From the IMG/VR virus record IMGVR_UViG_3300019876_000001, positions 1 to 52,126 of that record: 52,126 bases of DNA, one strand, 5' to 3'. The position numbers and the translations under genes are program-made. The DNA is from a virus (taxonomy: Duplodnaviria > Caudoviricetes). Below the pieces are notes generated by a model. It was not told where the DNA came from. It made no database searches and saw only the letters and a program-made list of their open reading frames with translations. Positions 104-51,681 of this stretch are shown here, one piece after another; the first letter of the stretch is position 1, and each line of letters starts with the position of its first letter.

Positions 104-127
104 CTGTGTGAGTCACACGGAGAACGA
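1..127. repeat. Exact 127-bp direct repeat of 45466-45592 (circular overlap / assembly branch k-mer)
   Basis: Base-by-base identity 1-127 = 45466-45592; first mismatch at 128 (T) vs 45593 (A). Confidence 0.95.
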
Positions 128-129
128 TC

Positions 130-1071
130 ATGTCTTGGCTTAGCGAAGCCTTTTCAGGCAATAGAGCTAAACAACAGGCAGCTACTGCCGAACAGCAACG
201 GTTGGCTAAAGAGGAGGCTGATCGTGTAGCTGCGCAGAAGCGTGAAGATGACCTGAAGGCTGAGAACGCTGCTAAGATGTTGGCGCTGCGCACTAACTCG
301 GAAGCAGCAGGACGCAACTCGGCCAATCAGTTCTTCACAAATCAGGGCCTTGATCCTGCACAATTCCAAGGTGATCTAGACTCTAAGATACAAGAAATCT
401 TAGGCACAACGTCGCAGGATGATCCTAATGTCGGACAATACTTCAAGGACATCGGTCAAAGCATCTTCAATTCTAAGCAGGACGCGTTTCGGTCTAATGC
501 GGGGCGTAGCCTCAACTCCGTCTTCACTCCTGATTATGAGCACACGCGCATCGGCGATACAACGGACGACTCCGTACTCTCAGACGTCTTCAACGAGCAG
601 CGTGGAACAGCCGACAGTTACATTAACAACCTTTTCAAGAGAGGCGTGATCAATCAAACTGGAAAGGAAGGTGCTGAGCGCAACCTAGATACGCAAGGTG
701 CACGAGTCCATGCAACGCTTAATGACATTGGCAGTGATGTACTTGCAACCGGGCGACAAGGATTGACCGATATCCAAAATCGTGCACGGTCAACTGCGCA
801 GACATTACCATTTGGTTCTACGTTCGATGTAGGCAACTACGCCAATCAAGCCAACCGCTCGTTTGATGACTTCATGGGTAGTTTGGGCAACTCAATTCGT
901 TCGCGTGTAACAAGTCCGTTGTTTGATACAAGTAGTCTTGCTTCTATTGCTGGCGGTGCTCAAGGAGCCCAGAACTTGAAATTCGATCCGAAAGCCTTGG
1001 CCGGTGCGATAGGCTCCGGTGACGATGACGAACAGAAGCAACAAGATGCTGTGAACCGTATCAGCTTCTAA
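130..1071 (+). CDS. Putative internal virion/ejection protein, allele A
   Basis: GGAG RBS; Ala/Gln/Asn-rich helical 313 aa; follows tail fibre genes as podoviral ejection genes do; homologous to 45595-46539. Confidence 0.6.
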   Translation: MSWLSEAFSGNRAKQQAATAEQQRLAKEEADRVAAQKREDDLKAENAAKMLALRTNSEAAGRNSANQFFTNQGLDPAQFQGDLDSKIQEILGTTSQDDPNVGQYFKDIGQSIFNSKQDAFRSNAGRSLNSVFTPDYEHTRIGDTTDDSVLSDVFNEQRGTADSYINNLFKRGVINQTGKEGAERNLDTQGARVHATLNDIGSDVLATGRQGLTDIQNRARSTAQTLPFGSTFDVGNYANQANRSFDDFMGSLGNSIRSRVTSPLFDTSSLASIAGGAQGAQNLKFDPKALAGAIGSGDDDEQKQQDAVNRISF

Positions 1072-1088
1072 CCGTGTGAGTCACACAG

Positions 1089-2042
1089 ATGCCTATTGAT
1101 CCGATCACTGCTACACTGACCGCTGGCACTGTTGTAGGCAATGTCCTTAATAGTGCTCAGGCTCGTCGTGATGCGCAGGCCAACCTTGAATTCCAGAAGT
1201 GGCTTGCCAACGAAGAACTTAGAATGGGACAGGCATCTCGACAAGATGCCATGGGAAATACGGTTCGCTATGACAAAGCGCTCAACAAGTGGGTTACGGA
1301 CCTTACTCCTTTCCAAAACCAGTTATCAAAAGCTGGAGAGCATGAGCAGTACCTTAGTCTGGTTAACGATGCTGCTCAAAATCGTCAGGTACGAGAACGT
1401 GCTTTTCAACGGGGGTCCGATGCTGGCGAGGACTATAATCGAGAACTCGCAGGCTATCGAAACAATCAAGGCCCTGGGGAAGACGCCATTCGAAGCCAAC
1501 TCACTGATCTTATCCTGCGATCCCGACAAGGACAGAATAACGGTGGAGGCAACCCCAATAACTTTATTCGACAACGAGGCAATCTTCCCGTGGTGTCATC
1601 GAGTCGATCGCCATCCTCGGGAGTATCAGATGTGGCCAGCGCGATGCTAGAGGCTCGTCAGGGTGCGTTAGGTGAACGTGGTCAGCGCGATCAGCAACAT
1701 GCCAGCCGTTACCTACCCGCGATGCAACACTTCGCAGCCACTATGGACGCCGGTGGCGGAGCACCTATCAAATTCCCAGACTTCGGCTACTTGAACCAGA
1801 ACCAAGCCAGTATGTCTGATGATGCCTTGAAGGCAATGGCGGAGGCTCAAAAGGGTGTGCAAGGAGCGTATACAGGTCTTGGTAATGCATCCAAGCTCGG
1901 TCAGATCAACCCTGCGCAGATAGCAGCAGCATTGAGAGGATATACGGGATCAACAGCTAAGGCGGGTAGTGGTGTGTCGCCAATAGCTTCGAGCACCTCA
2001 GTAGACAATCGAAGCATCGATGATATCATGTACGACTTCTAG
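1089..2042 (+). CDS. Putative DNA-pilot/ejection protein, allele A
   Basis: Hydrophobic Gly/Ala N-terminus (MPIDPITATLTAGTVVG) followed by Gln-rich coiled coil; homologous to 46784-47725. Confidence 0.6.
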   Translation: MPIDPITATLTAGTVVGNVLNSAQARRDAQANLEFQKWLANEELRMGQASRQDAMGNTVRYDKALNKWVTDLTPFQNQLSKAGEHEQYLSLVNDAAQNRQVRERAFQRGSDAGEDYNRELAGYRNNQGPGEDAIRSQLTDLILRSRQGQNNGGGNPNNFIRQRGNLPVVSSSRSPSSGVSDVASAMLEARQGALGERGQRDQQHASRYLPAMQHFAATMDAGGGAPIKFPDFGYLNQNQASMSDDALKAMAEAQKGVQGAYTGLGNASKLGQINPAQIAAALRGYTGSTAKAGSGVSPIASSTSVDNRSIDDIMYDF

Positions 2043-2057
2043 CGTGTGAGTCACACA

Positions 2058-3147: not shown

Positions 3148-3153
3148 CTAAAA

Positions 3154-3526: not shown

Positions 3527-3552
3527 CTGTGTGAGTCACACAGGAGGTTGAC

Positions 3553-5877: not shown

Positions 5878-5892
5878 CTGTGTGAGTCACAC

Positions 5893-8800
5893 ATGCCGTT
5901 CAAGCTCAAGATCACTGGTCCCGGTGTCAACGACTTCGAGTGGGTCTGGGAGGAAGGACCTACCGAACTTCCTCCTGTTGACCTTCCTGAGTGGCCTGCT
6001 CCTCCTAGAGCAGATCTAGGCCCAGATGAAGTCGTTCCGCCTCCTGACATCACACGGGAAGCGCCTCCTCCTGTTCGCCAACGCATCACAATCACGCCAT
6101 CTCCGCGTGATCCAATCGATGCCGTACTTCCTCCTGCACGACAGTTAGAGCCTCCTGTCGATCCTGTTGAGGCAGCCATACCTACTTCGCCTTTTCCTGT
6201 TCCAGAAGTTCCACAGATGATGGAGCCTCAACAGGACCTTATTGATCAGTTAATGCCAGTGCAGCAGCCACCTCCTCCCGAACCAAGGAACCAACAACCT
6301 GTGCGTCAACTCTACCGTGGTGTGTTGGATGCGCCACAGAACCTATATGATCTAGCTGCGAATGTAATTGAGCCTATGCAGGTTCCTCCTCGTGGTGGTC
6401 AGTCTCTACGTGGTGGGCGTCCTCCATCATCCAAACCATTTCAACCTGCTGCTGACTATCTTCGCAAAGCAGGCTCAAGCGCTCGTCAGCAGATCCTTGA
6501 CCTTACTGGCGCTGAGGAAGTGCCTCCAGATATATTCTCTCGAACAGCTAAGACAGTAGGTGAGAGCATCGTTCCTGGTGGAAAACAAGCTGGTACGATG
6601 AGTGCGATTGTTGGTGGTACTAACGTTGCAGTTAATGAGGCTAGGCGCTTAGCTGCGAACCCTGCTTTTAGTTCAGGTGGCGCCCCTGATTGGATTAGTG
6701 GTGCTCTTGTTTCTCCGGCAGGTGCTGCAGAAGGGCAATTCGATCAACCACAAGGTGAGGTTGTTGTAGAAACTGTGAGTGGTCCTAAAGCCGTGAAGAG
6801 CACAGAGCTTATGGCTGTAGGCACTATTGCGTTGGCAACGATAGGGATGATCTATGGGCCGCGTGTTTATCAGCGTATTGTTGGCTCCGATATTCCTCGT
6901 ATGCGTCCAGTTCGTGAAGCAGCCCCTGGCACAGTGGCTATCAGCAGACCACGTGATCTTGCTCGTACTTATGATGATGCTAATGCCGGCGCGTTTAATA
7001 TTATGCGTCGCGCTGGCGTTGACCCTGTAGCTGCCCGTGAAGTGGAGAACACCTTTCGAATTCAGTCACGCGCAACTGCTAATGCAATGGCTGATAGTGC
7101 AATCAATGCTGGGCGCATGGAGACTCCTGCCTTTACGTTTCAATCAAGGACACCACTGGCTACAATTGCGCCACTAGAGTCGCAGCCTGTACGTGATTAT
7201 TTGCATGTGATGGACACAATCGATGAGATAAAACAACGAAGCTTAATGATGATGAACAGGCGAATTCCTGGAAACGCTGTAGTTCGTGGACTTGACATCG
7301 CTCAGGCAGGTAACGTCAAAAGAGCACTTGAGGCAACTAATCCTGAAGTCGTACAGATCGCTAAGGAATATTGGGACATCACACGCAACCTACGCAATTT
7401 CGAAGTTACGGGTGAATACGCAACTGTGACTCCATCCCTAAACGCTCACTACAAACGTAGTTGGCCGCACGAAGTCCCAATGCATCCTCGTGACCCACAG
7501 CAATCGCATCTCAATGCTCCTGAGCGTGGTAGTGCTACGGAGGCACTTGCAAAGGATATGCGTGAGAGGCTCCGCGCACGTATGGAGAATGAAGCGAAAG
7601 GCAAATACGTTGATGAAGTTCGTAGGGTCATGCCTAATATGTTCGTTCCTGTGACTACAGAACAATTAAAAGACAACAAAAGTTGGGCCAAGAACGTCGT
7701 CGAGTTCAAGCGTCGTGGTGTGACTGAGCGCTACACAACTGATCCGTTGCTCGCTGATATCCTCCGTATGGACCCATACTACATGACCAGTATGGCCGGT
7801 AACTTGTTCTACTCAGCTAAGCGTGCTATCGAAGTTACAACGACAGGTGAATTAGCTCCTTGGTTTGCAGCAACAAGCCTCTATAGAAACTGGGGCATTG
7901 GTAAGATAACGACCGAGCAGGGAATGCAAAGTCCTACCTTTGTAGGATCGCACATGGCAATCCCTCGACAGTTAGGGCCGCAAATGGCCAATTACATCAG
8001 TAAAACACTAGACAATAACAGTGGAGGGTGGCTCACCAATGTCTTTGGCCAAGGTAACATCGATGCTCTCAGCCAGCGACTTGCGCATGCATATCAAAAC
8101 AGCCTATACCACAGATTGGAGACGGTGGGAGGTGGACGTGGATCAATACTTCAACAACAAACAAGTGCTAACAACCGCCTAGCTAATGCAATTCGTGATA
8201 CTACTGGGCCAGCGAAACAGTTCCTTGAAGGGTATAGATCGCTGCTCAATTCCGTGCACAACGCCGCCGCCTTCGACTACGCACGTCGTAACCAAGGACG
8301 TGTCTCGCTCCCAGAATTAGGCAGTCGCGCACGCAATATGACAGGTGATCCTCGCATTGGCGGCGAGTACTTCACAAAGCTTCCTGGAGCTACAAGGCAG
8401 AGCGCTATTCGCTTTGAAGACGATACGAGTCGTGTGAGTCACACACTTGGCCTCGTCAATAAATATCTATATGGTCCTGAAACTGAGTTCGGTCGAACTG
8501 CTATACCTTGGTACAACGCAACCATACAAGGCGTGAAACGTATAGGGTCGGCATATGCAGAGAACCCTGCCAAGTTTACAGCGCGTACATGGCTCTACTA
8601 TGTAGCTCCCACGGCGTCTCTTTACATGGCGTCACAAGCACTTGGAACTGATCCAAACGGTGTGTCGTATACAGATTATGCGATGAACCGGCGGTCGGAA
8701 TACAACAAGATCATGAATTGGTACGTCCCTATTCCTGGTAGACCAGCAGAGGAAGGCATCGAGTTCCCACGCTTCCATGAATTGACTGCTGCTGCTTATA

Positions 8801-9873: not shown

Positions 9874-9881
9874 TGTGTGAC

Positions 9882-10088
9882 TCACGTACCAGGTTTAGAC
9901 AGTTCTCTAAACCACGTATTGGTTGTGTTTATGTGTCCATCTTTCTTCATGCGCTGAAACCATGCAATAGCTTCTTGCATGGAGTTGAACGGACCGAAAA
10001 ATTCAAACCCGTCGATTGGTCCTCCCATAATAATGATGAAACCAGTAGCTTCGCTGGTAGGCATGAACTTAGTATCGACCTTTGGCAT
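9882..10088 (-). CDS. Hypothetical protein
   Basis: GGAGAGG RBS; 68 aa; palindromes on both sides. Confidence 0.6.
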   Translation of the reverse strand: MPKVDTKFMPTSEATGFIIIMGGPIDGFEFFGPFNSMQEAIAWFQRMKKDGHINTTNTWFRELSKPGT

Positions 10089-10116
10089 GGTGTAACCCTC
10101 TCCAACCCTGTGTGAC

Positions 10117-10500
10117 TCACACGTCTTTCTCTCTAATTTCCATTACAGGTGACGGTACTCCATAGTCCGGTGGATCGTATGGGAACCTAATGAAGACTCG
10201 CTGCCCACTTGCAATGTCCCAAGCATTGCCCGCCCCGTCTTTGAACACAGAACAGCACCTTACATTCTGCCATAGGTCCTGGTTGTCTATTGGCTTGACC
10301 CATTCATTATCTTCACCGGTAAGTGGAGTCAGCGACTTGTATGCAATCAGTCGACTGAATACAGGTAGCGCCACTGATACAGCACCTCCACTATCCCATT
10401 GATCCAAGAACTTCTCGATTAACTCGATCATCACCTTGGAGTCTTCCTCGCCAAAGTTGCAGCGCTTGAGCTCATCTTTTGCGTGTTCTATGATGCTCAT
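10117..10500 (-). CDS. Conserved phage hypothetical protein
   Basis: SGG...LTPLTGEDNEW pattern recalled from phage proteins; stop codon lies in the palindrome. Confidence 0.7.
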   Translation of the reverse strand: MSIIEHAKDELKRCNFGEEDSKVMIELIEKFLDQWDSGGAVSVALPVFSRLIAYKSLTPLTGEDNEWVKPIDNQDLWQNVRCCSVFKDGAGNAWDIASGQRVFIRFPYDPPDYGVPSPVMEIREKDV

Positions 10501-10760
10501 GGCTTCTTCCTTTCATGTTCTGGTGCAGGTACAGGCTTTTTCCACGATGGCCTCGTGCCGATAATTGTTCCCATAGCATCTCCTACACATAGCTCTACCG
10601 TTTTCAAGAAGGCAGTTCTCCGTTCTTCCTTTTCTACTAGTGTCATCCTGATAGACGCAAGCTTAATTGCTCCTTTCATTGTGCCCGGCATTGCATAATA
10701 TGCGTTCCACCACTTGCCCTCTACGCGAAAAGCAACACGTCCTATTTGTTGTTCACTCAT
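10497..10760 (-). CDS. Hypothetical protein
   Basis: ATGA-coupled to both neighbours; 87 aa. Confidence 0.7.
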   Translation of the reverse strand: MSEQQIGRVAFRVEGKWWNAYYAMPGTMKGAIKLASIRMTLVEKEERRTAFLKTVELCVGDAMGTIIGTRPSWKKPVPAPEHERKKP

Positions 10761-11011
10761 GACGCGTGCTCCATTATCTTCGTTGTGGCTCTCCAGACGG
10801 TGTAGCCCCTACCTCCACGTCGTCCCATTGCAGGTACTTTGAACTTCTGTACCTTGTCGTCAGCAGCCAAGAAATTCAACTCGGCTTCTAGCATTGGTGC
10901 CGTTGCGTAGGCATCGAACTTGGCCATGATGTCTGACCATTTGTAGCCCGGTATGCCTCCTTCTACGAGAAAATCTACTAGCCTACTCTGCCAATCTACT
11001 GTCGTTGTCAT
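10757..11011 (-). CDS. Hypothetical protein (possible winged helix)
   Basis: Start MTTTVDW is ATGA-coupled to the polymerase stop. Confidence 0.6.
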   Translation of the reverse strand: MTTTVDWQSRLVDFLVEGGIPGYKWSDIMAKFDAYATAPMLEAELNFLAADDKVQKFKVPAMGRRGGRGYTVWRATTKIMEHAS

Positions 11012-13506
11012 AGTTTCACCACCTTCATTTCTGACCAGCGATGTAGTCCTTTTGGGTCTTCCACGAACGCCTTTTTCTCGCTGTCCCATAGACTGGGATA
11101 GGACATCTTCAACTCCGCAGGTATGCCCAGCGGTTCTGGTTTCCTCCTGTTGTACACGTCCTGTATAAAGATATCGGACTCAGCATATCGCTTCATTATA
11201 CCAAGACAGGTCTTAGCAACTTTTGGCGTAGTGATTGCCACGAGGTTATCGTGTACATCAATGCCAATTCTCGCTTGTTCAGGCATTGGCCATTTATCAT
11301 CTTCTTCACACTGGTACCAAACCTGGACGATCTTGTCGCCAATTGTAGACTGAGGGTAAAACGCAATGATCGAGTCAAGGACAGAGTCATCAAGTCGTTG
11401 AACAACTTTGAGTCGGCGACCGAAGGGGTTGTAGATCGCACGCGTCTTACGGAAACCTTCTTCCTCAGCGGCCCACCAACGACGGAGTTCTGGAGTAATC
11501 GAGTGATATAACGCAAAGGCACGTGCGCTCTCGTGGTAAGGTAGGCCTGTGACTTGCGAGAGCCTGAAGCGCTCCATTCTGTAATTGAGACCGTGTCTGC
11601 ATCGTTTCGCAATATACCGTTTAGTCGGCCTAAGGTCCTTGTCCCAATCTTTGGTTGGTACTTGATCGTAAGGTATCTTGAACATTTGCGAGGCGAGTGC
11701 CCTGTGACAGTCATAGCTTCCATCCTTCTTTGCTCTAGCGAATTGCTCCTTCCACTCTATTATATCTGCTCTGAACGAGACAACTTGTGCCTCAGCCTGG
11801 GCAAGGTCGATATACAACAACACGCACCCTTTGTCAGCAACGTACATTCCTCTTGCCCGCATGGGCTGGTTTTGTATGTTTCCACCCTCTTTTTCGACAA
11901 GGAGCTGAGAACAAGACAAACGGCCAGGAGCCCTGCTAACTCCAAACTGTTTATTCTCGAACCTAAATCTACCATCTGGGGACACGCGAGACTCGGCATA
12001 TGTTCCACGAAATTTATCCTCCTCTTTGAACTTGTCCAGTGACACAAGCATCTCTTTATCGATTGCCCTCGTCTTAACGTTGGCCATAATCAGTTTGCGA
12101 TTATCTTCGTCGGTGGAGACGCCACGACCCTCTAGCTTCAATCGCGTGAAGAACAAGTCACGCATCTGATGATGTGAATTAGGATTGGGAAAATACTCAG
12201 TATCTCCTGTTGCCTCGTGAACCATATCATAGAATTTCTGCTCAGCTGTATTTACGTCGGCTGTTACCTGCTCAGTAATAATCTCCTTCATACTTAGGTC
12301 CGTGTTGATCCCGTGAACAGTTGAACGATACAAATGTGGATGTGCTCGCATTATGTGATTAAAGAATACTTCATCCATTCCTTGCTTCATGATTTCGTTG
12401 TGTAGCTTCTCGTAACATGCGTATGTCAAAGCTGCATCTTTGCAGTTGTACTTCCAATAGGTGTCGATATCTCCACCGTCACGCCATGAGTCAGCATCTC
12501 CCTTGTAGTATGGGTGTGTCGTGTATTGAGACACAAGGAACGCTAGGCTGTGAGGCAGCAGTGGATACAACGCGTGATGTGCCAATAGAGTATCGAACCA
12601 GAAGTCAGTGCGCAGCAATTGATGCATCCATGAAAAATAAGCATCGAATTGTGCATTCTGCGCTACCATTTTGTGTGAGTCACACAGGTCTTGGATTGCA
12701 TACAGGATGTTGACTTCTTCAGAGAGCGTAAAACGATTGCGCTTGTGATCACGAAAATTAATACACATAGCGCGATGAGGGTTATTCGAAAGGCCGATGC
12801 AAGCCATTTCATAGTTGATAGCCTCTACGTCATACGACACAGGACGCTTCTCACCTTTCAGGTCCTTGATAAAACGCATAGTCTCTTTGTATGTCGGGTT
12901 GATCAATTCTTCGATTAGGTGAGGCTTGAATGTTCCATCTAATAGATGTTTGGCTCGTTGCAGGTCTTTTATAAATATAGGCTCGAAGCGTGGTTCGCGA
13001 TCGCCCATTAGAAACGCAGCATTGAACGTGCATACTGCGTGACCCTTCCTCCCATTCGGCAACTCCAGCGGAAGCACTGACCCTCGCCACTTGGTTATTT
13101 TGTCCAATCCCAAAACAGCCTGAATGGCATAGTTCCCCAAACAGACGATAACCTTCGCGTTCGGAAGCTGCGACAGTTCCCATTGGGTCAAGTCGATCCA
13201 TTTGTCCAACTCATCTTTTAAGACGACGTGCTTCTCGTTGCCTTTGGAAGACAAACTGATCTGCCGTTTGACAACATTAGTTGCGTAGACCGTCTCAGGG
13301 CGCAGACCCCATCTGGCTGCACCTTCCCACATAAGCTTCCCAGAGCCTCCAACAAATGGCCTCTTGCGTCGACATTCAGTTTCTCCAGGACCTTCTCCAA
13401 TAAACACAACCTCGGAGTCGACTGGACCATCTGACAACACCTCCGTTAAGAGTCCCATATCATTAGCGTGGGATCTGAACTGCTCATGTAACTTTTCCAG
13501 CTTCAC
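11008..13506 (-). CDS. polA: Family A DNA polymerase with N-terminal family-4 uracil-DNA glycosylase-like domain and 3'-5' exonuclease (SPO1-type architecture)
   Basis: UDG motif IGEGPG..E.....PFVG.SG; exonuclease SYDVE, NAQFD, YNCKD; motif A IDLAQAEAQV; motif B RYIAKRCRHGLNY; motif C VHDN. Confidence 0.92.
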   Translation of the reverse strand: MKLEKLHEQFRSHANDMGLLTEVLSDGPVDSEVVFIGEGPGETECRRKRPFVGGSGKLMWEGAARWGLRPETVYATNVVKRQISLSSKGNEKHVVLKDELDKWIDLTQWELSQLPNAKVIVCLGNYAIQAVLGLDKITKWRGSVLPLELPNGRKGHAVCTFNAAFLMGDREPRFEPIFIKDLQRAKHLLDGTFKPHLIEELINPTYKETMRFIKDLKGEKRPVSYDVEAINYEMACIGLSNNPHRAMCINFRDHKRNRFTLSEEVNILYAIQDLCDSHKMVAQNAQFDAYFSWMHQLLRTDFWFDTLLAHHALYPLLPHSLAFLVSQYTTHPYYKGDADSWRDGGDIDTYWKYNCKDAALTYACYEKLHNEIMKQGMDEVFFNHIMRAHPHLYRSTVHGINTDLSMKEIITEQVTADVNTAEQKFYDMVHEATGDTEYFPNPNSHHQMRDLFFTRLKLEGRGVSTDEDNRKLIMANVKTRAIDKEMLVSLDKFKEEDKFRGTYAESRVSPDGRFRFENKQFGVSRAPGRLSCSQLLVEKEGGNIQNQPMRARGMYVADKGCVLLYIDLAQAEAQVVSFRADIIEWKEQFARAKKDGSYDCHRALASQMFKIPYDQVPTKDWDKDLRPTKRYIAKRCRHGLNYRMERFRLSQVTGLPYHESARAFALYHSITPELRRWWAAEEEGFRKTRAIYNPFGRRLKVVQRLDDSVLDSIIAFYPQSTIGDKIVQVWYQCEEDDKWPMPEQARIGIDVHDNLVAITTPKVAKTCLGIMKRYAESDIFIQDVYNRRKPEPLGIPAELKMSYPSLWDSEKKAFVEDPKGLHRWSEMKVVKL

Positions 13507-14072: not shown

Positions 14073-14093
14073 TTGGGTTCTCCTCTGTGTGAG

Positions 14094-14519
14094 TCACACA
14101 ATCTCTAACAGCTGCTCTACGCTAAGGACGATGTTCTGCGCCAACAGGTACATAAGGTCAGGTTCTTGTTCTTCTGGCATGAATATGATCAATCTTTTAT
14201 TGGCACCAACAAACCATCCCGCTTCCATGTGGGCACTTCGGCCACACGGTAGTACCAATACGCAGGTATCTGCCCATTGCATTCCACGGAAGTCTGATAG
14301 ATAGCCATACGACGATATCTCGCTAGTCGTTAACTTATCTATGTACTCTTCCCGTGTCCACTTCTGCCAATTTGGATCAATCTCTTTCCAGTGAAAACCG
14401 GCGTAGCCTTCACGAGGGTTTCTGAAGTTGAATATCTCATGCCCTCCTGCCTTCAGGCTGTCTACCACTTTATAAAAGTACGAATTGCGCCAACTCGAAG
14501 CTACGTAAATCCTACTCAT
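14094..14519 (-). CDS. Nucleoside 2-deoxyribosyltransferase-like protein
   Basis: IYVASSWRN, D...M.WAD..VLVLPCGRSAHMEAGW; AAGGGAG RBS before MSRIY. Confidence 0.75.
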   Translation of the reverse strand: MSRIYVASSWRNSYFYKVVDSLKAGGHEIFNFRNPREGYAGFHWKEIDPNWQKWTREEYIDKLTTSEISSYGYLSDFRGMQWADTCVLVLPCGRSAHMEAGWFVGANKRLIIFMPEEQEPDLMYLLAQNIVLSVEQLLEIV

Positions 14520-15871: not shown

Positions 15872-16156
15872 CTACCTCTTCAAACCTGGGGGCAACACTG
15901 GATCAACCAACAGCTTCGTCACGTGTTCGACTGTAATGCCTTTGGTCCTTTTCGCTGGCTTGTTAATCTCTAACACCTGTTGTGCGGTCTGTATGATCAC
16001 TGCACGCATGAAGCTATTCACTGAAATACCTAATAGCCTCGCTGCTTCCACTACTACCTTCCTATCAGCAGCCTGACAACGCCACACCAGTTGTGCTGTG
16101 CCGTTTTTGGGAGGCTCCCGTAAGTTGACTGTTACTGTATATCTTGACTCGTACAC
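15872..16156 (-). CDS. DUF1778-like ribbon-helix-helix DNA-binding protein
   Basis: DRKVVVEAARLLGISVNSFMRAVIIQTAQQVL pattern; GGAGG RBS. Confidence 0.65.
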   Translation of the reverse strand: MYESRYTVTVNLREPPKNGTAQLVWRCQAADRKVVVEAARLLGISVNSFMRAVIIQTAQQVLEINKPAKRTKGITVEHVTKLLVDPVLPPGLKR

Positions 16157-16474: not shown

Positions 16475-16533
16475 CTCATATCTCCCTTGTGTTAATGGGC
16501 GCCGTGTGTGACTCACACAGCGCCCGGCTTCAG

Positions 16534-17175: not shown

Positions 17176-17397
17176 TTAATACTTCGAACTCTTCAGTTCG
17201 AGTACCTTACCTTGTTTGGGTGTCGCCTCTGGCTGCTTACAGTCTATGTGACTCACACGATCCCCATCTATACGAAACCCATGCTCAGGCTTTACGTTGT
17301 TGCCACATACTGAACATTTCTCGTATATCACTTCCTCAGCCCTCATTTTGGAACCTCTAACTTTTCGTAGCCATTTTGCTCCCATTGTGAGTACCAC
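17176..17397 (-). CDS. Small Cys/His hypothetical protein (true start probably near 17346)
   Basis: CSVC...H...HIDC; contains a near-copy of the palindrome. Confidence 0.45.
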   Translation of the reverse strand: MVLTMGAKWLRKVRGSKMRAEEVIYEKCSVCGNNVKPEHGFRIDGDRVSHIDCKQPEATPKQGKVLELKSSKY

Positions 17398-18203: not shown

Positions 18204-18260
18204 AGCACTCTCCGTAGTACCAACAACACGTCTTCTCGCAGCGACTAAGCTCTGTGTGAC

Positions 18261-18446
18261 TCACACAAGGCCCTTCTCTTTTGCCCACCACTCCTTCACC
18301 TCTACCTGCTTCCCGTCTATGTCTATCTCTTTGATCACCGATCGTGGTATCCATTTCTCTTCCCCATCCATCGCAAACAACACGGCACCCTCATCTTCGA
18401 AGTCGCGCAGCACTGACTCGAATGCTAACTCAGCATATGACTCCAT
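18261..18446 (-). CDS. Hypothetical protein
   Basis: GAGGGAG RBS; EKWIPRSVI...WWAKEKGLV; stop in palindrome. Confidence 0.65.
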   Translation of the reverse strand: MESYAELAFESVLRDFEDEGAVLFAMDGEEKWIPRSVIKEIDIDGKQVEVKEWWAKEKGLV

Positions 18447-19957: not shown

Positions 19958-19973
19958 TGTGTGACTCACACGG

Positions 19974-20742: not shown

Positions 20743-20750
20743 TGTGTGAC

Positions 20751-20960
20751 TCACACAGGTTTGAAGCCAGTCAACTCTTTATGTGCATTAACATCATATG
20801 TGAGATAGTGCTTATCGTTAGAACAATCCACATACAACGCCCCATCGTTAGGGTCCTGCTTAACCTCCAACACCTCACCTTTGTGTAGACAAACCCCTGC
20901 GTGCATATTGGTCTCCAAGACTTCCAACTTATCGCCCAGCTTTACGTTCTGGTAGTTCAT
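20751..20960 (-). CDS. Hypothetical protein
   Basis: 69 aa; stop in palindrome. Confidence 0.6.
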   Translation of the reverse strand: MNYQNVKLGDKLEVLETNMHAGVCLHKGEVLEVKQDPNDGALYVDCSNDKHYLTYDVNAHKELTGFKPV

Positions 20961-21651: not shown

Positions 21652-21964
21652 TAGGACACCCAGGGACCTTACACACAGGAGGCTTAGTCCTTACATCACA
21701 CATAGGGCATTCTGTGTGACTCACACGGCCTAAGAACATCCCAAGCGCATCATGTAGAGCCTTAGCCTTATCCATTACCTTCGTTACGTTCTTCCTAAAG
21801 TACATATTCTCGTTTTCGTAATCACTAATGGCTAGCTCTATTGTACTAAATCTATTCTTACATCCAAGACACTCCCGCCGACGACGAATGCATCCATTCA
21901 TCGTCGGGCGGGAGTCTGTGACCTTAGTGGCCATATCGCCACAACTGGGACAAGGCAACTTCAT
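21560..21964 (-). CDS. NrdR-type N-terminal zinc-ribbon protein (no ATP cone)
   Basis: CPSCG....KVTDSR.....[18 protein letters not shown]. Confidence 0.75.
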
Positions 21965-22249: not shown

Positions 22250-22453
22250 GGGATAGTCCCTTCTAAGGTTTGACACAACTCGTTAATTTTTTTTTCGCGT
22301 GTGACTCACACAGTCCAGGTCGGGGGGAGGTGTTGGGGAACCTTATGTGGGATACGAGCCTCCCCCCTTCCATCGACGGACCATTACAGCCCGTTTTGCA
22401 TGATATGTCTCCTCTGTTGTCCTGAGTTCTTTGATCTCACACTCTACATCACG

Positions 22454-23252: not shown

Positions 23253-23427
23253 TTGACACTCCCTTTGTGTGACTCGCTGCTAACGAATGTCTTCGTGACT
23301 CTGTGTGACTCACACGCTGTTTGCACTTCTCTTCTGCTCTACAGTAGTACTTATGATCAGTCGTCGCCTTGAAGTTGCTCCTGACTAATGAGCCATAGCC
23401 GCACTTATAACAATTCATGACGCCCAT
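23188..23427 (-). CDS. Small Cys-rich hypothetical protein
   Basis: GGAGG RBS; CYKC...C....C; contains the palindrome (RVSHT). Confidence 0.45.
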   Translation of the reverse strand: MGVMNCYKCGYGSLVRSNFKATTDHKYYCRAEEKCKQRVSHTESRRHSLAASHTKGVSNDQPKHEQAFWRDNSRWGQDK

Positions 23428-23737: not shown

Positions 23738-24061
23738 CTATTGTCCATTGATTATCTCCACACTTTTGCCCCATACACACCTTTCACCCAACTCTTTCAT
23801 TCCAATCCATCCATTCACATACAAGGCGCCACTCCTATCCAGATACACCTCTAAATCCTCATCTGAACACGCCCTGAGTATCTCTACAAACTCCTTCCTC
23901 CTTGCACTACTACCTTCTAACTTTAACAACTTAATCAACACAACGAACGCGTACTCTAGGCTCCTTCTACTGTGTGACTCACACGCTGCCTCTATGTGTG
24001 TCCTGAGACGCATAAACAGATCATTACGTCGCCTCTCCTGCTCTGTCCTGAGAGATACCAT
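23738..24061 (-). CDS. Early hypothetical protein
   Basis: AGGAGG RBS; contains the palindrome at 23972. Confidence 0.6.
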   Translation of the reverse strand: MVSLRTEQERRRNDLFMRLRTHIEAACESHSRRSLEYAFVVLIKLLKLEGSSARRKEFVEILRACSDEDLEVYLDRSGALYVNGWIGMKELGERCVWGKSVEIINGQ

Positions 24062-24125: not shown

Positions 24126-24139
24126 GTGGCACAAAACTA

Positions 24140-24163
24140 CGGGGTGGCCTAATCGCCACCCCG
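24140..24163. terminator. GC-rich hairpin after the 302-aa gene (terminator-like)
   Basis: CGGGGTGGC-ctaatc-GCCACCCCG abutting the palindrome at 24163; GTTTT follows shortly on the minus strand. Confidence 0.5.
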
Positions 24164-24176
24164 TGTGACTCACACT

Positions 24177-25085: not shown

Positions 25086-25157
25086 TGCTCCCTTAGCGGG
25101 CTTGATTGCCCGTCACTGGCGCTGTGTGACTCACACAGCGCCAGAAACTGACAACCC

Positions 25158-26567: not shown

Positions 26568-26596
26568 TTGACTGTGTGACTCACACGCTCTAGACT
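26568..26596 (+). promoter_or_regulatory. sigma70-type promoter whose spacer contains the palindrome
   Basis: TTGACT-gtgtgactcacacgctc (17 nt)-TAGACT. Confidence 0.65.
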
Positions 26597-26700: not shown

Positions 26701-26851
26701 TGTGTGAGTCACACGCCAGCGGCAATGTGAGAGGGGTATGGTCAGATTGTAGGTGATATGGGCCTATATCCGCGCCTTCGGCGGTACGGATAGAGGCCCA
26801 AGAGGAGAGAGTGCGGCTTTGGAGGTAACGTGGAACGTTATGGGATGTCAA

Positions 26852-27382: not shown

Positions 27383-27493
27383 TAGGCCGCACTCCTATGT
27401 GACTCACACGATATATGGGTGAATGTTGTGCTTGCGCACACCATCCACAGCCCCCCATCACGCGGTATATGGCCCTCCGGGGAACGAAGATAG

Positions 27494-27522: not shown

Positions 27523-27570
27523 GTAAAAAATTCGAGCCATATGTGATGGTGTGTGACTCACACAGCGCCA

Positions 27571-27599: not shown

Positions 27600-27775
27600 G
27601 GTTGCGTTCGATGGGCGGGCCGCACTCACCCATCGGGAGCAGAGATCGAGATGACACATCGACGGGTCCCCAAAGAAACCGTGGCTGGATTACTGGCCGT
27701 CTCTGTAAGGGGTGTGGCAGAAATGTCACACCCCGACCATTTAGATTTAGTGTGTGACTCACACAGGAGAAGATC

Positions 27776-29169: not shown

Positions 29170-29195
29170 TTGTGTGACTCACACAGGAGATTGAT

Positions 29196-30985: not shown

Positions 30986-31057
30986 TCGTGATTGGACTTG
31001 TATTCTACCACCCGGCCATGTTGGTCCGTGTGTGAGTCACACAACGAGGAGAGTGAA

Positions 31058-31907: not shown

Positions 31908-32510
31908 ATGGACGCGCGTTTGCAGGCTGCGAAGGCTATTATCGACATGGAAGCTCGTCGTGATAGTCGTGGACATTTGGCCATTTACGCCCTACCCCCG
32001 AATGATGGAGGTGGAAAATTCGAGGTGGCAGGTATCAACGAAAAATACAATCCAGCCGAATGCGCGCGTCTTATTGAATTGATCCATGCCAAGAAATTTG
32101 ATGAGGCTGAGGCTTATGCGCAAGAAGTAATTGCGCGAGACACAGACGGTGCTGAACTCTGGCATTTGAAAGCCATTAAGTTCGGTGAGGATGGTGAAAC
32201 TTTAGGTGATCCCGGTGTGCAATTCTTTTTGCGCGATAGTATCTTTAATCGTGGCCTACATGGTGCTGCTCGTATTTTGCAGCTTGCTGTGGGAGTTGAC
32301 GATGACGGCATTGTTGGGCCTGTTACTTGTAAGGCTGTTGAGGAGCGTGAGCCGACGGCACTTCTTAAATCGTTGCGTGAGTCTAGAGAATTTTATGAGC
32401 GTCACGTTGTTGGTTATCGCGCGAACTTCTGGAAGGGGTTGGTCAATCGATGGAATAAGGTCTTGAAGATCGCACAAAATATGGATCAAGGCGATACACG
32501 GATCGTGTGA
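31908..32510 (+). CDS. Endolysin, GH108-like with peptidoglycan-binding C-terminus
   Basis: E...DGGG...AGI, D..FN.G, LQLAVGVDDDGIVGPVT, FWKGLVNR. Confidence 0.85.
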   Translation: MDARLQAAKAIIDMEARRDSRGHLAIYALPPNDGGGKFEVAGINEKYNPAECARLIELIHAKKFDEAEAYAQEVIARDTDGAELWHLKAIKFGEDGETLGDPGVQFFLRDSIFNRGLHGAARILQLAVGVDDDGIVGPVTCKAVEEREPTALLKSLRESREFYERHVVGYRANFWKGLVNRWNKVLKIAQNMDQGDTRIV

Positions 32511-32532
32511 GTCACACACTGAGGAGGTTACC

Positions 32533-33538: not shown

Positions 33539-33556
33539 CCGTGTGAGTCACACACC

Positions 33557-35824: not shown

Positions 35825-36938
35825 TGATGCTAATCAAGACCTCGTTTTCGACAACCTTGGACTCTCCCAACAAGATTTGGGAATGGGCGGTAACGAAGGT
35901 GATTTCAATGATCCTGGTGATGATGACGACGCTGGATTAGGAGATCAACAGGATGATTTGCAACTTGATGACGGTGACGATGATGGAGATAGTGATCCAT
36001 TTGCGTTGCGTGATGATGATCTGCCTCAAGATCGCCGTGTGAGTCACACAGAAGGTGATCGCCGACAACAGCAGCAACAGCGGCGCGAGCCTCGGCCACT
36101 TCCAAAGGATGCAAAGGTCCGTCCAGACAAGAACGGCAATTTGCTCAATGAAAAGGGCGAAATCGTTGCTCGGGCGGGTCGTGAGGCTCGATATTACACA
36201 GCTAGGGAAAAGGCTAAAAAGGACTTGGTGTCGCGCGATAGCCAGCTTCGAGATACTGCGGGGCGTTTAGGTCGTGTTACGCAGATTGCGCGAGAGCTTA
36301 AGGCCACTGTTGACGGGTACGCTAATCAGTTTAAGGCCATTAAGGACATGGGATTTACTGCCGATGATCAAGTGGCAGCCATGAACTTGTTCTCTCAGAT
36401 GAGAAAAGACCCGAAAGGGACCTTGACAAAGCTGTTGACTCGTGCAGCGGCAAATGGTATAACTGTAGATGGTCAATCAGGTCAGCCACAACAAGCGCAG
36501 ATCGCAGATGTTGTTAAGGGCCTGTTAGATGAGCAACTGAAGCCGTTTAAAGAAAACCTGACTGCTAATCAAGAGCGTGAACGTGCGGAACAGCAACGAC
36601 GCAATGATGCAGCGGCAGTGGATAATGAAGTTGGCCAGTTCTTTGGTCGTAACCCGGACGCTGTGCCCTACGCTCCGGTGTTTGCAAGGGTGTTACGTGA
36701 CCCAGCTTTCTCTGGCATGTCGCTAGGTGAAATCTACGCACGTATCTTACAAAACCAGTCTAGGGGCGGTCGCCGTCCTTCGCTGCGTGATCCCGGTCGA
36801 AATGGCCGAACTCCCTCTCGTAGGGGAAGTCCACCGAATGGTCGATCTGCTCCGTTTAACGGCGGGACAGAAATCGCTAATGTGAACGAGACTTACGACT
36901 CGATCATCAATAGCGTGCTCGACGAAAACCGTGTGTGA
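35796..36938 (+). CDS. Capsid scaffolding protein
   Basis: Acidic disordered N-terminus plus coiled coils, between portal and MCP. Confidence 0.7.
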   Translation: MAPRSSNFNSDANQDLVFDNLGLSQQDLGMGGNEGDFNDPGDDDDAGLGDQQDDLQLDDGDDDGDSDPFALRDDDLPQDRRVSHTEGDRRQQQQQRREPRPLPKDAKVRPDKNGNLLNEKGEIVARAGREARYYTAREKAKKDLVSRDSQLRDTAGRLGRVTQIARELKATVDGYANQFKAIKDMGFTADDQVAAMNLFSQMRKDPKGTLTKLLTRAAANGITVDGQSGQPQQAQIADVVKGLLDEQLKPFKENLTANQERERAEQQRRNDAAAVDNEVGQFFGRNPDAVPYAPVFARVLRDPAFSGMSLGEIYARILQNQSRGGRRPSLRDPGRNGRTPSRRGSPPNGRSAPFNGGTEIANVNETYDSIINSVLDENRV

Positions 36939-36966
36939 GTCACACAGATAAAGGACGGGATACGCA

Positions 36967-37944: not shown

Positions 37945-37980
37945 CCCTATCCTAAACCCTTAGCCTTATGGAGGGCTGAA

Positions 37981-38421: not shown

Positions 38422-38475
38422 CGTGTGAGTCACACAACTCTATATAACTGTCCAACAGAAACAAGGATATAGAAC

Positions 38476-39174: not shown

Positions 39175-39204
39175 GTCGTGTGAGTCACACAAGGGGCTGC
39201 TCCT

Positions 39205-41708: not shown

Positions 41709-41725
41709 GTGTGTGAGTCACACAG

Positions 41726-43369: not shown

Positions 43370-43385
43370 CGTGTGAGTCACACAG

Positions 43386-45341: not shown

Positions 45342-45355
45342 ACAGGAGAAGAGAG

Positions 45356-45568: not shown

Positions 45569-45594
45569 CTGTGTGAGTCACACGGAGAACGAAC

Positions 45595-46539: not shown

Positions 46540-46547
46540 GGTGTCCC

Positions 46548-46766: not shown

Positions 46767-46783
46767 CCGTGTGAGTCACACAG

Positions 46784-47725: not shown

Positions 47726-47741
47726 CCGTGTGAGTCACACA

Positions 47742-48729: not shown

Positions 48730-48762
48730 CTAAAACGTGTGAATCACACAGGAGAAGGCAGC

Positions 48763-49637: not shown

Positions 49638-49639
49638 CC

Positions 49640-49984
49640 ATGGAAGACGAGGACCTTCTGGACATGATCCAGCAGAACATGGGCGAAGAACCGCAGCAGG
49701 CCAGCGCGCGTTCCAAGGCCCAGTTTCGCTTCTTGCAGTCGATTGCCAAAGGCGGCGATCCTGCAATGCCTCCTGGAGAGACAGGCCGTCCGACACCGCG
49801 CAGTTCACTGACACCTGACGACGCACAGAATATGGTGGCGCCACCTATCGATCCATGGTCGGGGCAGCCATTCAACAAATACTATCGCATGCTTCCCAAT
49901 ACGGCAAAGGAAGGTCCTGATCCGTTCGAGGAGTACAATCAACAGATCCAGGAAATCATGCGGAATCGTCGCCGTGGATTCTAA
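49640..49984 (+). CDS. Disordered-family protein (C-half of 4829-5329)
   Basis: ASARSKAQFRFLQ, SGQPF.KYY, GPDPFE. Confidence 0.75.
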   Translation: MEDEDLLDMIQQNMGEEPQQASARSKAQFRFLQSIAKGGDPAMPPGETGRPTPRSSLTPDDAQNMVAPPIDPWSGQPFNKYYRMLPNTAKEGPDPFEEYNQQIQEIMRNRRRGF

Positions 49985-50010
49985 CCGTGTGAATCACACA
50001 GGAGGCAACA

Positions 50011-50226
50011 ATGGGACCTAAGAGTTTACTCGTACGCGTGCTGATGATCCTATTGGCAATCGCGTTCGTCGTTCTGTGCTACTACATTACTATATGGGTA
50101 CTGGGCTTGCTCGGTATTCACATTCCACAGAATATCTTGAACGTGATATTCGTGATCATCGGCCTATTGGCTGCAATATGGGCACTAACTGGACAGCTTG
50201 ACGTCTGGTTCGTTAAGGGGCAGTGA
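50011..50226 (+). CDS. Two-TM membrane protein
   Basis: AGGAGG RBS; very hydrophobic 71 aa. Confidence 0.7.
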   Translation: MGPKSLLVRVLMILLAIAFVVLCYYITIWVLGLLGIHIPQNILNVIFVIIGLLAAIWALTGQLDVWFVKGQ

Positions 50227-50939
50227 TGCCAACAAAACGCTTTCCAAGATTACCCGAGCCTCCGAATCAAGCCCCTATGTGGCAGGACGAGGAGAACGAT
50301 CCGTACCAGGGCATAGTCTCGCATCGTGGCTACGATATGCACGCTATGCGAGAATTCCCTGCACCATTCGATACCGATCCTGGTCTATCCGGTGAAGGCG
50401 ATGATCTACCAGGACTACAAGATCCCGGTTTCATGGGTGATGTACCAGTAGTAGAGGATGTCAGAATGCAACAGCGCGATCCACGTATCGATGCAATCGA
50501 GCAAATGGCTCGTCAGGGTCAGGTCCAGCGTCCTGGTATGAAGACTGAGCAGGACTATCGACAACAATTCAAAGGCGAAAATCCTGATTTCACGCCGACT
50601 CGGCCACGTATGCCTGGGCTCCCGGAATACGGAGGAGAGCCAACGCCTAACGATCTTGCAGAACATGAAGCTGCTGCGCAGATGTCAGACGAGGACATAC
50701 TGGCAAAGATGCATGGTGAAATGGCATCTCCCAATGGCGGTTACGACGCCAATGCACTTGCGCCGTTCACTGGTAATTACGACGAAGACGTTCAGATACT
50801 CGAACGTGAATTGAAGACGCCAGGTGCCGATCAAGGCGAGCTAAATCGCATGTTCAACGAGCTTCACGGCGATGATATGGACGACCGTGAAATGGACGAG
50901 CCGACTAACGAGAGCGATATGCGGCGCGGGAGATACTGA
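50223..50939 (+). CDS. Disordered-family protein (N-module of 4829-5329 joined to modules of 5326-5877)
   Basis: NQA..WQD.ENDPY, REFP.PF.TDPG, DPRIDAIEQM, MSDEDIL. Confidence 0.75.
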   Translation: MMPTKRFPRLPEPPNQAPMWQDEENDPYQGIVSHRGYDMHAMREFPAPFDTDPGLSGEGDDLPGLQDPGFMGDVPVVEDVRMQQRDPRIDAIEQMARQGQVQRPGMKTEQDYRQQFKGENPDFTPTRPRMPGLPEYGGEPTPNDLAEHEAAAQMSDEDILAKMHGEMASPNGGYDANALAPFTGNYDEDVQILERELKTPGADQGELNRMFNELHGDDMDDREMDEPTNESDMRRGRY

Positions 50940-51634
50940 TGCAACGCGATCCACGGATCGATGCACTAGAGGAACTCTTCGGCAAGGGTGGTGGGCCTGT
51001 GCGCCCTGGTATGAAAACCGAGGAGGACCTGCGTCAGTTCGAGGAGCAAAACGTACCGCGCGGACAGCGACAGCCCGAGAACTTCGATCCAAACAGCGAA
51101 GACTCGATGAGGGAACGTGCCACTGCCGATGCAGTGAAACGGTACATGGCACAGGAAGGTTACTCGGATCAAGATGTCATGGAGTCTTTTGGTGCCGGCG
51201 GCGAGCAGGCTGAGGCTTTCATAAACAATTTCGGACTAGAACCGCACCTTCGTCTTGAGCGTCAACTCGGTCTTAGTAGAGAAGATGATCCGCACGAAAC
51301 AATTGAGAAACAAAAACAATTCGACATGAGCGGTCTTACTCCATACACGCCTATGCCTCGTCCGCGGTATCCGGATTTGAAATACAGTTCAGAGCACGGA
51401 CAGGAGCAGATGGACCCTCCGGATATGATCGAGCAGGGCGCTACATTTCGAAAACAAGACGCTGAGCGGTTGCGCGATCCAAAGAAATGGCAAGAACGAA
51501 ATCCAGGCACTGAGTTCGGCTATAGCTCTGAGGGCGAGGAAGGCTATATAACTGATGAGGATATTCAAGAAATGATACAGAAGGGTCTCGTTCCAAAAGA
51601 TATGGGGCGTGCAAAGCGTCGTCGCGGTCGATAA
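50939..51634 (+). CDS. Disordered-family protein
   Basis: DPRIDALEE, RPGMKTEEDL, YTPMPRPR, IEQGATFR, TDEDIQEMIQKGL. Confidence 0.75.
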   Translation: MQRDPRIDALEELFGKGGGPVRPGMKTEEDLRQFEEQNVPRGQRQPENFDPNSEDSMRERATADAVKRYMAQEGYSDQDVMESFGAGGEQAEAFINNFGLEPHLRLERQLGLSREDDPHETIEKQKQFDMSGLTPYTPMPRPRYPDLKYSSEHGQEQMDPPDMIEQGATFRKQDAERLRDPKKWQERNPGTEFGYSSEGEEGYITDEDIQEMIQKGLVPKDMGRAKRRRGR

Positions 51635-51681
51635 CTGTGTGAGTCACACGCAAGCCGTTCCCGATCCCTAGCAGGCAACAC

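Follow-up and report, generated by a model that had tools for sequence, protein, structure and literature searches.

A 13-bp palindrome repeated throughout an uncultured podovirus-like phage genome: a candidate genome-wide site for a dimeric DNA-binding protein

The phage genome and its repeated palindrome

We analyzed a window of 52,126 bp, the entire IMG/VR virus record IMGVR_UViG_3300019876_000001, which holds a podovirus-like genome punctuated by a 13-bp palindrome, GTGTGANTCACAC. The palindrome recurs about every 1.2 kb and occurs in all genome modules; we examine here its copies, its counterparts in related phages, and the protein that may read it. Gene families were assigned by Pfam and PHROG scans of the submitted window open reading frames (ORFs). 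These scans identified genes for DNA polymerase A, a Dda-like helicase, a Sak4-like annealing protein and an exonuclease, as well as genes for the small and large terminase, the portal, the capsid, and a 1326-amino-acid (aa) protein encoded after internal-virion-like genes. The same scans returned no RNA polymerase, integrase, methyltransferase, recombinase, partition, or CI-like family, only weak matches to small helix-turn-helix and ribbon-helix-helix proteins, and no primase gene was recognized among the scanned ORFs. The best matches among cultured phages share about 25% (at most about 26%) identity in the capsid, polymerase, or terminase. Prokaryote genomes yielded no capsid relatives, no prophage-like relative was found, and the phage looks lytic.

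The record is a wrap-around join of two strains, with its last 6.5 kb derived from a rarer relative. Positions 1-147 recur at 45466-45612 with 99.3% identity, whereas the remainder of 148-6000 is only 67-82% identical to 45613-52126. When contigs of the two sequencing runs that contain the phage were mapped on positions 40000-52126, the contig depth fell at 45669 from about 17-26 to mostly 2-6; the depth of the 6.5-kb tail, a diverged version of 148-6000, is 4-10 times lower. A depth-21 contig spans 44421-45612 and then departs from the window sequence, and we read it as continuing past 45612 into the first allele. A joint to 46759 corresponds to the motif region in common with position 1064, and parts of the tail are 81-89% identical to one relative (G001). 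Given the terminal overlap and the drop in depth, the true genome is about 45,465 bp long. It contains 35 of the exact motif copies, and the second-strain tail contains six. The preliminary description of this DNA had noted that the motif is kept at equivalent junctions in two diverged alleles of the ejection cluster. This is correct as regards the sequence, where four pairs of copies correspond (106/45571, 1074/46769, 2044/47728, and 5880/51637), but the "alleles" belong to two strains and not to one genome.

The contig mapping left 12 loose ends, every one at a motif copy. By eye, four distinct loose-end consensus sequences (8 of the 12 rows) match the flanks of other copies in the same genome, and the other four rows are absent from the window. 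Most simply, the common motif allowed contigs from other loci or phages to be mapped here, and we draw no evidence of recombination from them. In another relative (G008, loci L336-L338), the recorded "direct terminal repeat" is an exact 77-bp overlap of the ends. A circular or permuted genome whose assembly overlaps itself is a likelier source of it than a physical repeat.

Abundance, conservation and placement of the sites

The window contains 41 exact copies of GTGTGANTCACAC, compared with none in 100 dinucleotide-preserving shuffles and none in a reversed-sequence control. The earlier count of about 41 exact copies, far above chance, thus holds, and the four near copies reported with it become three (at 9875, 17246, and 27397). 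Every exact copy is a perfect palindrome with a 1-bp spacer. The symmetry reaches beyond the 13-mer: position -1 is C in 19 copies and T in 21 (C or T in 40/41), A (34 copies) or G (7) follows at position +1, and positions -2 and +2 tend to C and G. Isolated half-sites are found at chance level (13 GTGTGA and 12 TCACAC in the window, with about 12.7 expected per strand), indicating that the functional unit is the pair with its invariant 1-bp spacer. As described earlier, the copies populate every module and lie mainly at gene junctions. Three are located within long, well-supported ORFs (the 1326-aa gene, the DNA polymerase gene, and a 412-aa ORF), and all others lie at junctions or in the poorly coding early region. 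The sequence GANTC is present in all 41 copies; outside the motif, it was observed 104 times against about 204 expected, a depletion similar to that of other palindromes. A methylation or restriction site of the CcrM/HinfI type was rejected, since the 47 sites of the GTGTGANACACAC lineage lack GANTC and the ORF scans gave no methyltransferase family.

A scan of viral contigs with a 14-mer recovered at least 114 stretches, many of them with 0.5-1.3 copies per kb, and the loci with the same motif span G+C contents of 0.43 to 0.53. Five retrieved relatives with the same motif carry 35, 39, 30, 21, and 23 copies and share 46-74% amino-acid identity with the window in the DNA polymerase, terminase, and portal. 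A scan based on the major capsid protein gave 207 relatives. For 80 capsid-related loci, we recorded the commonest 6-N-6 palindrome per locus, which was GTGTGANTCACAC in 41, GTTTGANTCAAAC in 18, GTATGANTCATAC in 3, and ATTTGANTCAAAT in 1; the remaining 17 had hybrid or degenerate forms, such as GTGTGAGTCATAC or GTGTGAGACACAC. A generalized scan detected 870 distinct sites in 192 loci, of which 463 have the window form; perfect palindromes, in three types, make up 566 of the sites. Each of eleven whole genomes has 30-71 TGANTCA cores flanked by conserved bases, against about 11 expected by chance by our own arithmetic. In prokaryote genomes, there was a single match per locus among the matches listed (80), and no report of the motif in a phage context was found among the literature matches listed. 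Together, excess and conservation support the earlier claim of a selected, genome-wide cis element.

The family uses several versions of the half-site. We term genomes with the half-site GTGTGA G-type and those with GTTTGA T-type; GTATGA is another lineage variant. The DNA polymerases of G-type genomes are 60% identical to one another and 56% identical to those of a tight T-type clade. Since G-type genomes are as far from each other as from this clade, GTGTGA looks ancestral. A site that co-evolves with a dimeric reader would be expected to look uniform within a genome and to switch from lineage to lineage, as is seen here.

The two halves of the site change independently of each other. In four T-type genomes, of which G006 and G007 are near-duplicates (n = 153 sites), positions 3 and 11 were T/A in 88 sites, G/A in 35, T/C in 18, G/C in 5, and other combinations in 7, with no association between them (Fisher p = 0.55-1.0), and the same independence was seen in a hybrid genome (G009, p = 0.35). 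Pairing at 3/11 is impossible in 57 of the 153 T-type sites (37%). As RNA, the canonical 13-mer has a fold energy of -3.2 kcal/mol, the T-type one of -0.7, and hybrid sites one of 0, and the motif had no matches in Rfam. The independence of the half-sites and the instability of the variant hairpins indicate that the motif consists of two inverted GT[G/T/A]TGA half-sites with a fixed 1-bp spacer and is not a selected RNA fold. On the same evidence, we rejected a hairpin as the main function, as well as a structured RNA or REP-like element, and the processing site that was among the options offered earlier is disfavored.

The in-frame copy of the DNA polymerase gene occupies the same place in 11/11 genomes, where it encodes L-C-D-S-H. 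Across 22 distinct sequences of this copy, the cysteine codon is TGT in 20/20, the serine codon is TCA in 22/22, and the third base of the preceding leucine codon is G in 22/22; variation is confined to the center (C in 19, T in 3) and the last base (C in 20, T in 2), and the adjacent conserved Ala, Gln, and Asn codons use all synonyms. In the two T-type polymerase sequences (G006 and G007; loci L330 and L334), which come from near-duplicate genomes and are not independent, TTT (Phe) replaces the family-wide TGT (Cys), turning GTGTGA into GTTTGA. These patterns point to selection at the nucleotide level on the in-gene copy, and to a Cys-to-Phe change of the protein that was driven by the switch of the DNA motif. 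We rejected an ancestral split of the polymerase gene at this copy, which lies four codons ahead of the exonuclease motif QNxxFD and not at a domain border. The long ejection-protein gene has 0-4 in-frame copies at differing places, read V-S-H-T or L-T-Q-T.

Spacing statistics, computed with the generalized motif pattern, revealed that the sites are distributed more evenly than expected. The coefficient of variation of the gaps is 0.54-0.73, compared with about 0.96 under random placement, and the largest gap in five genomes is 2.3-2.6 kb, compared with about 4.4-5.3 kb. For the window, the largest gap is 2563 bp (random mean 5180), and none of 2000 random placements was as even. With crude gene calls, the spacing was also more even than that of randomly chosen gene junctions in the window, G001, and G005 (0/3000). 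Mean spacing is about 1.0-1.9 kb, and few gaps exceed 2.6 kb. Some sites keep their position: one precedes the ejection gene and one the portal gene in 9/10 genomes, and two tail genes have a site before them in 9/11. Other junctions never have a site, for example that upstream of the helicase (0/11), and many sites turn over.

At gene junctions, whose classes are approximate because the gene calls come from a home-made codon-usage caller, the sites are closely fitted to the signals of translation. The distance from the motif to the start codon is bimodal, with one peak at +2 (29 cases) and another at +11 to +15 that has a ribosome-binding site in between. In 43 cases the motif itself provides the upstream stop through its TGA; in 22 cases the stop overlaps the first base of the motif, and in 72 it lies 1-4 nt ahead of it. 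The center of the site on the sense strand is G in 46/51 sites with an abutting start versus 40/95 otherwise (p = 6e-9), and on the coding strand of the window it is G in 33 copies, C in 6, and A in 2, under an automatic and noisy strand assignment. We read the GAG of the motif as a weak ribosome-binding site 8 nt upstream of the start, a use that would explain why the coding-strand center is mostly G in the window. Asymmetric variants keep the canonical half at the 5' side of the sense strand (43 to 4 for GTGTGANACACAC, 31 to 7 for GTGTGANTCATAC), and we infer that this orientation bias stems from the use of the left half as stop codon and ribosome-binding site.

In all eleven genomes, the 5 kb that surround the end of the first late gene contain 4-10 sites. 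In the window, a strong leftward sigma-70-like sequence (TTGACA-17-TATTAT with TG, 27494-27522, minus strand) faces the early genes, and further sigma-70-like promoters at 24096-24125 and 22454-22482 face leftward into them. Nine same-strand CGATCTCAY repeats, 21 or 32 bp apart and helically phased, lie at 25896-26105 with motif copies on their flanks (25794, 26201). CGATCTCAY is present in 11 copies in the window versus 1.1 expected, and the array is probably a replication origin or a regulatory iteron array. A promoter or terminator reading of the motif itself was rejected: promoter- and terminator-like counts do not exceed those of shuffles, and where a terminator-like hit overlaps the motif, it consists of no more than the palindrome followed by a few T. 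Moreover, with a start codon 0-3 nt downstream, the motif leaves no room for a promoter of the adjacent gene.

A dimeric reader and the alternatives

We favor, with a probability of roughly 0.55, the explanation that the sites are recognized as duplex DNA by a dimeric protein. Among the options offered in the preliminary description, such a binding site best fits the independent half-sites, the fixed 1-bp spacer, and the lineage-wide switches. The reader is most likely encoded by the phage and co-evolving with its sites; the occurrence of the same motif across G+C contents of 0.43-0.53 suggests that it travels with the phage. We propose that a homodimer (or a dimer of dimers) would recognize the two inverted GT[G/T/A]TGA hexamers across the fixed spacer, and that the phage would maintain sites at intervals of about 1.2 kb that seldom exceed 2.6 kb. 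The compact genome would squeeze most sites between a stop codon and the next start, where the left half may have been secondarily recruited as a TGA stop and the center G as part of a weak GAG ribosome-binding site. In over-long genes, the site would be written into the reading frame. By analogy with the L5 stoperators, our preferred reading of the function is that the sites form a genome-wide operator or roadblock that acts on the host RNA polymerase and on DNA organization, with primary control exerted at the dense cluster around the early divergent promoters and a distance-limited action elsewhere. In view of the spacing rule and the in-ORF copies, a structural, protective, or priming role is also conceivable.

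It is conceivable, if rather unlikely, that the sites serve a spacing-constrained self-marking, in which tags at most about 2.6 kb from one another serve as loading points for a phage-encoded dimer that acts over a limited distance, through looping or condensation, nuclease protection, or priming. Were this true, tags would be kept even within the reading frames of the DNA polymerase and the ejection protein, half-site changes would act as specificity switches, and the rule would have no described counterpart for any phage repeat.

Eight small early or late proteins of the window are conserved, encoded at 10757-11011, 15872-16156, 19974-20252, 20431-20742, 21214-21648, 24177-25079, 27776-28162, and 29196-29438. 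Two of them, with DNA-binding folds, are candidates for the dimeric reader, and neither is convincing as a binder. The model of the 84-aa winged-helix protein (predicted local distance difference test, pLDDT, 87) resembles MarR, ArsR, and YodB, with template modeling (TM) scores of 0.6-0.7 and E of 0.006 or more. The 94-aa ribbon-helix-helix protein has weak Pfam matches to TacA1 and NikA, and its fold is like those of the antitoxins AtaR and TacA and the repressors Arc and CopG. PDB profile searches with the 302-aa and 145-aa protein families gave nothing below E = 0.19, and for the 103-aa and 144-aa proteins the similar entries in a protein atlas were all either coiled coils or unnamed. Searching for the binder by covariation failed because the G-type is ancestral and the T-type marks one clade, so that motif type is confounded with phylogeny. 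We also rejected a Z-DNA reading of the GT/CA arms by a Z-alpha-like winged helix, as T-type sites are not alternating purine-pyrimidine; in our reading against a Z-alpha sequence, the winged-helix protein also lacks the key residues.

Several observations weigh against a dimeric protein as the reader. No binder was identified among the phage proteins scanned and compared: the DNA-facing strand residues of the ribbon-helix-helix candidate differ among genomes with an identical motif, the winged-helix candidate has an acidic third helix, and the fold matches of both are weak (E of 0.006 or more). No repressor, integrase, or RNA polymerase gene that would make a stoperator-like circuit expected was found among the scanned ORFs, promoter-like sites do not outnumber those in shuffles, and the majority of motif copies have none nearby. 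Transcription factor sites are not typically spaced so evenly or placed within ORFs, and a purely symmetric DNA reader does not predict the asymmetric variants oriented with transcription. Finally, the sharp bimodality of the start distances would equally suit a translational element.

Dispersed palindromes of 13-17 bp with dimeric readers, which serve chromosome organization or global repression, include matS/MatP, the KorB OB sites, and the inverted repeats of the phiC31 repressor, and phages also have repeated intergenic cassettes in the form of the T4-type promoter-stem-loops. All of these differ from the window motif in sequence, in a much lower density or a restriction to certain regions, and in their replicons. 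Dispersed palindromes have been noted in a few cultured phages, and a function is known for stoperators only. The earlier view that the motif represents an undescribed system was too strong as to kind, given the palindromes of Cluster O mycobacteriophages (PMC4351075) and the 13-bp repressor sites of L5-like phages (PMC9283540), as presented in the available parts of these reports.

According to the available text on Cluster O, each genome carries more than 30 invariant inverted-repeat copies of a 17-bp palindrome, TGTTCGGNNNCCGAACA, with a free spacer; the copies are intergenic and in ORFs, few of them coincide with promoters, the host lacks the sequence, its function is unknown, and the authors likewise propose a dimeric binding protein (PMC4351075). 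The window motif resembles it in having at least 30 invariant inverted repeats, a variable spacer base, and intergenic as well as in-ORF copies, but differs in its 6-1-6 rather than 7-3-7 layout, its sequence, and its length, and also in host and virion type, Cluster O phages being prolate siphoviruses of Mycobacterium (PMC4351075). The accessible sections of that paper contain no lineage half-site switches, even-spacing rule, or use as stop codon or ribosome-binding site; they do report deletions between repeats (PMC4351075), of which we found none here. The two groups do not appear to be related, as TGTTCGGNNNCCGAACA differs from the window motif and no cultured phage among the best matches exceeds about 26% identity.

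The stoperators of L5-like (Cluster A) phages are described, in the part of the report available, as 13-bp sites present in more than twenty copies per genome, in short intergenic spaces and at promoters genome-wide, where the bound protein stops the elongating polymerase (PMC9283540). The window likewise has many 13-bp sites in short intergenic spaces (41 copies, with the stop or start a few bases off). In contrast to the window site, which is palindromic and belongs to a genome in whose scanned ORFs no repressor or integrase was found, the L5 sites are characterized there as asymmetric and orientation-dependent and are bound by the monomeric two-domain immunity repressor of temperate phages (PMC9283540). 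Of the known systems, stoperators offer the best mechanistic model for the window motif. Near-identical half-sites occur in the operator of NikR, a ribbon-helix-helix protein, given as GTATGA-N16-TCATAC in the text available (PMC7055735), and in the WATCACW heptads of omega/ParB of pSM19035, where the portion consulted describes one dimer per 7-bp unit and a need for two adjacent units (PMC9499535). GTATGA is the variant of one lineage in our family, TCACA lies inside the heptad, and the centers of the window half-sites are 7 bp apart. The spacing and arrangement differ, however, and in these excerpts the NikR and omega sites are few and located at promoters or centromeres (PMC7055735, PMC9499535). 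By this analogy, the phage ribbon-helix-helix protein would be a candidate with counter-evidence, as its strand residues vary.

New here are the even spacing, the nucleotide conservation within the polymerase gene, and the use of the TGA stop and the apparent weak GAG at tight junctions. The family-wide reach, the natural specificity variants, the spacing rule, and the apparent nucleotide-level selection in an essential gene are unusual features, and in this compact genome one short DNA element seems to have three uses, as putative protein site, as stop codon, and as ribosome-binding site. These features provide handles for finding the binder among the few conserved small proteins and for asking what a lytic phage gains by tagging its genome at kilobase intervals. 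The motif defines a large uncultured soil podophage family and can be used as a sensitive metagenome marker for it.

More doubtful than a phage-encoded dimer of either kind is binding by a host protein, namely a global regulator or nucleoid protein, with the lineage variants reflecting different hosts. The lack of a convincing phage-encoded binder speaks for this explanation, as does the confinement of the T-type motif to one tight clade that could share a host, and the half-sites TGTGA/TCACA equal those of the host regulator CRP. The CRP consensus, however, has a 6-bp half-site spacing, and a CRP-type operator was rejected on the N1 rather than N6 spacer in 41/41 copies. Moreover, the identical motif spans G+C contents of 0.43-0.53 and protein identities of about 50%, probably in different hosts, prokaryote loci have a single match each among the matches listed, and half-site types are mixed inside one genome.

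We consider it slightly less credible again that the motif acts at the RNA level, as an intercistronic hairpin or sense motif for translational coupling, repression, or transcript processing. The junction architecture would suit such an element well: the tight stop-start placement with its two distance peaks, the 43 stops formed by the motif's own TGA, the excess of sense-strand G at abutting starts, and the 5' half that asymmetric variants hold on the sense strand. Against it stand the missing 3/11 covariation, with 37% of T-type sites unpairable, the variant-lineage fold of at most -0.7 kcal/mol, and the copies conserved within ORFs or located in poorly coding early DNA. Furthermore, an element of this type does not need a palindrome, and there is no Rfam family.

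Improbable, in our assessment, is a role of the sites as replication or repair landmarks, that is, lagging-strand priming or loading sites or nuclease-stopping tags for both strands at Okazaki-like intervals. The mean spacing of about 1.0-1.9 kb with few gaps above 2.6 kb agrees with this idea, a palindrome gives the same sequence on both strands, the longest genes are filled by in-ORF copies, and priming is left unexplained by the scanned ORFs, among which no primase gene was recognized. Known primase recognition sites, however, are trinucleotides. The chance-level counts of isolated half-sites speak against a Chi-like, nuclease-stopping single-strand signal, and the separate, helically phased iteron array already resembles an origin.

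Least probable are recombination sites that make genes into cassettes, or microhomologies for the Sak4-like annealing protein and exonuclease: although both proteins are encoded, several alignment blocks against close relatives begin or end at motif copies (33541, 39178, and 43371), and the available Cluster O text records deletions between repeats (PMC4351075), gene-content breakpoints carry the motif no more often than syntenic junctions do (G001, 11/27 versus 10/28, p = 0.78; likewise G004, p = 0.30, and G010, p = 0.50), block ends are expected at an island of identity, the extra gene at 46548-46766 is not flanked by two copies, no recombinase was found, and the in-ORF conservation and even spacing would go unexplained. 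The cassette exchange considered in the preliminary description, including the coincidence of breakpoints with the motif, is thus not borne out. Integron attC-like and T4-type promoter-stem-loop cassettes were rejected for want of breakpoint enrichment and of a recombinase family.

Coordinates of the sites and neighboring genes

Table 1. Motif copies and candidate binder genes in the window
Feature	Position	Strand	Context
Exact copy, center G	106..118		past a stop; ATG at 130 is 11 nt on
Exact copy, center G	1074..1086		2 nt after stop, 2 nt before ATG
Exact copy, center G	2044..2056		tight junction
Exact copy, center G	3529..3541		followed by AGGAGG and ATG
Exact copy	5880..5892		abutted by ATG of the 1326-aa gene
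Exact copy	8432..8444		within the 1326-aa ORF, translated V-S-H-T
Near copy, 2 mismatches	9875..9887		
Exact copy	10110..10122		far end of leftward gene block
Exact copy	12673..12685		within DNA polymerase ORF (L-C-D-S-H); retained in 11/11 genomes
Exact copy	14087..14099		own TGA ends upstream minus-strand gene
Exact copy	16506..16518		part of longer palindrome
Near copy, 1 mismatch	17246..17258		
Exact copy	18254..18266		junction
Exact copy	19959..19971		tight minus-strand junction
Exact copy	20744..20756		tight minus-strand junction
Exact copy	21714..21726		early-middle region
Exact copy	22299..22311		early region
Exact copy	23303..23315		early region
Exact copy	23972..23984		early region
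Exact copy	24163..24175		between stop of 302-aa gene and terminator-like hairpin (24139-24164); hairpin directly after copy
Exact copy	25124..25136		part of longer palindrome
Exact copy	25794..25806		flanks iteron array
Exact copy	26201..26213		flanks iteron array
Exact copy	26574..26586		inside spacer of promoter-like TTGACT-17-TAGACT
Exact copy	26702..26714		directly after hairpin and T-run
Near copy, 1 mismatch	27397..27409		ahead of first early gene
Exact copy	27551..27563		between leftward promoter-like site (27522-27494) and rightward TTGACA at 27572 (by eye)
Exact copy, center C	27752..27764		ahead of ribosome-binding site of first late gene
Exact copy, center C	29172..29184		own ribosome-binding site downstream
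Exact copy	31030..31042		junction
Exact copy	32505..32517		TGA is stop of ORF 31908-32510
Exact copy	33541..33553		ahead of portal gene; site retained in 9/10 genomes
Exact copy	36037..36049		within 412-aa ORF (V-S-H-T)
Exact copy	36933..36945		TGA is stop of ORF 35700-36938; ahead of capsid gene
Exact copy	38423..38435		junction
Exact copy	39178..39190		junction
Exact copy	41711..41723		tight junction
Exact copy	43371..43383		tight junction
Exact copy	45571..45583		duplicate of 106, within 147-bp overlap
Exact copy	46769..46781		low-depth second-strain segment
Exact copy	47728..47740		second-strain segment
Exact copy, center A	48737..48749		second-strain segment
Exact copy, center A	49987..49999		second-strain segment
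Exact copy	51637..51649		second-strain segment
Conserved ribbon-helix-helix-like protein, 94 aa (candidate binder only)	15872..16156	minus	counter-evidence exists
Conserved winged-helix protein, 84 aa (candidate binder only)	10757..11011	minus	

Three further features of the window lie outside the question of the motif. At 13503-14609 (minus strand), a deoxynucleoside monophosphate kinase gene is located beside a nucleoside deoxyribosyltransferase-like gene, the latter found in the window only among the 11 genomes, and the pair hints at nucleotide salvage or DNA modification. The tail-fibre-like gene of 651 aa contains a 313-bp internal tandem duplication (43990-44614, 70% identity). Lastly, the Pfam matches in one of 63 aligned window proteins were to the Tad3 Thoeris inhibitor (E = 2e-23), an NrdR-like zinc ribbon (E = 3e-15), and DUF3597, which suggests that the phage carries an anti-defense gene.

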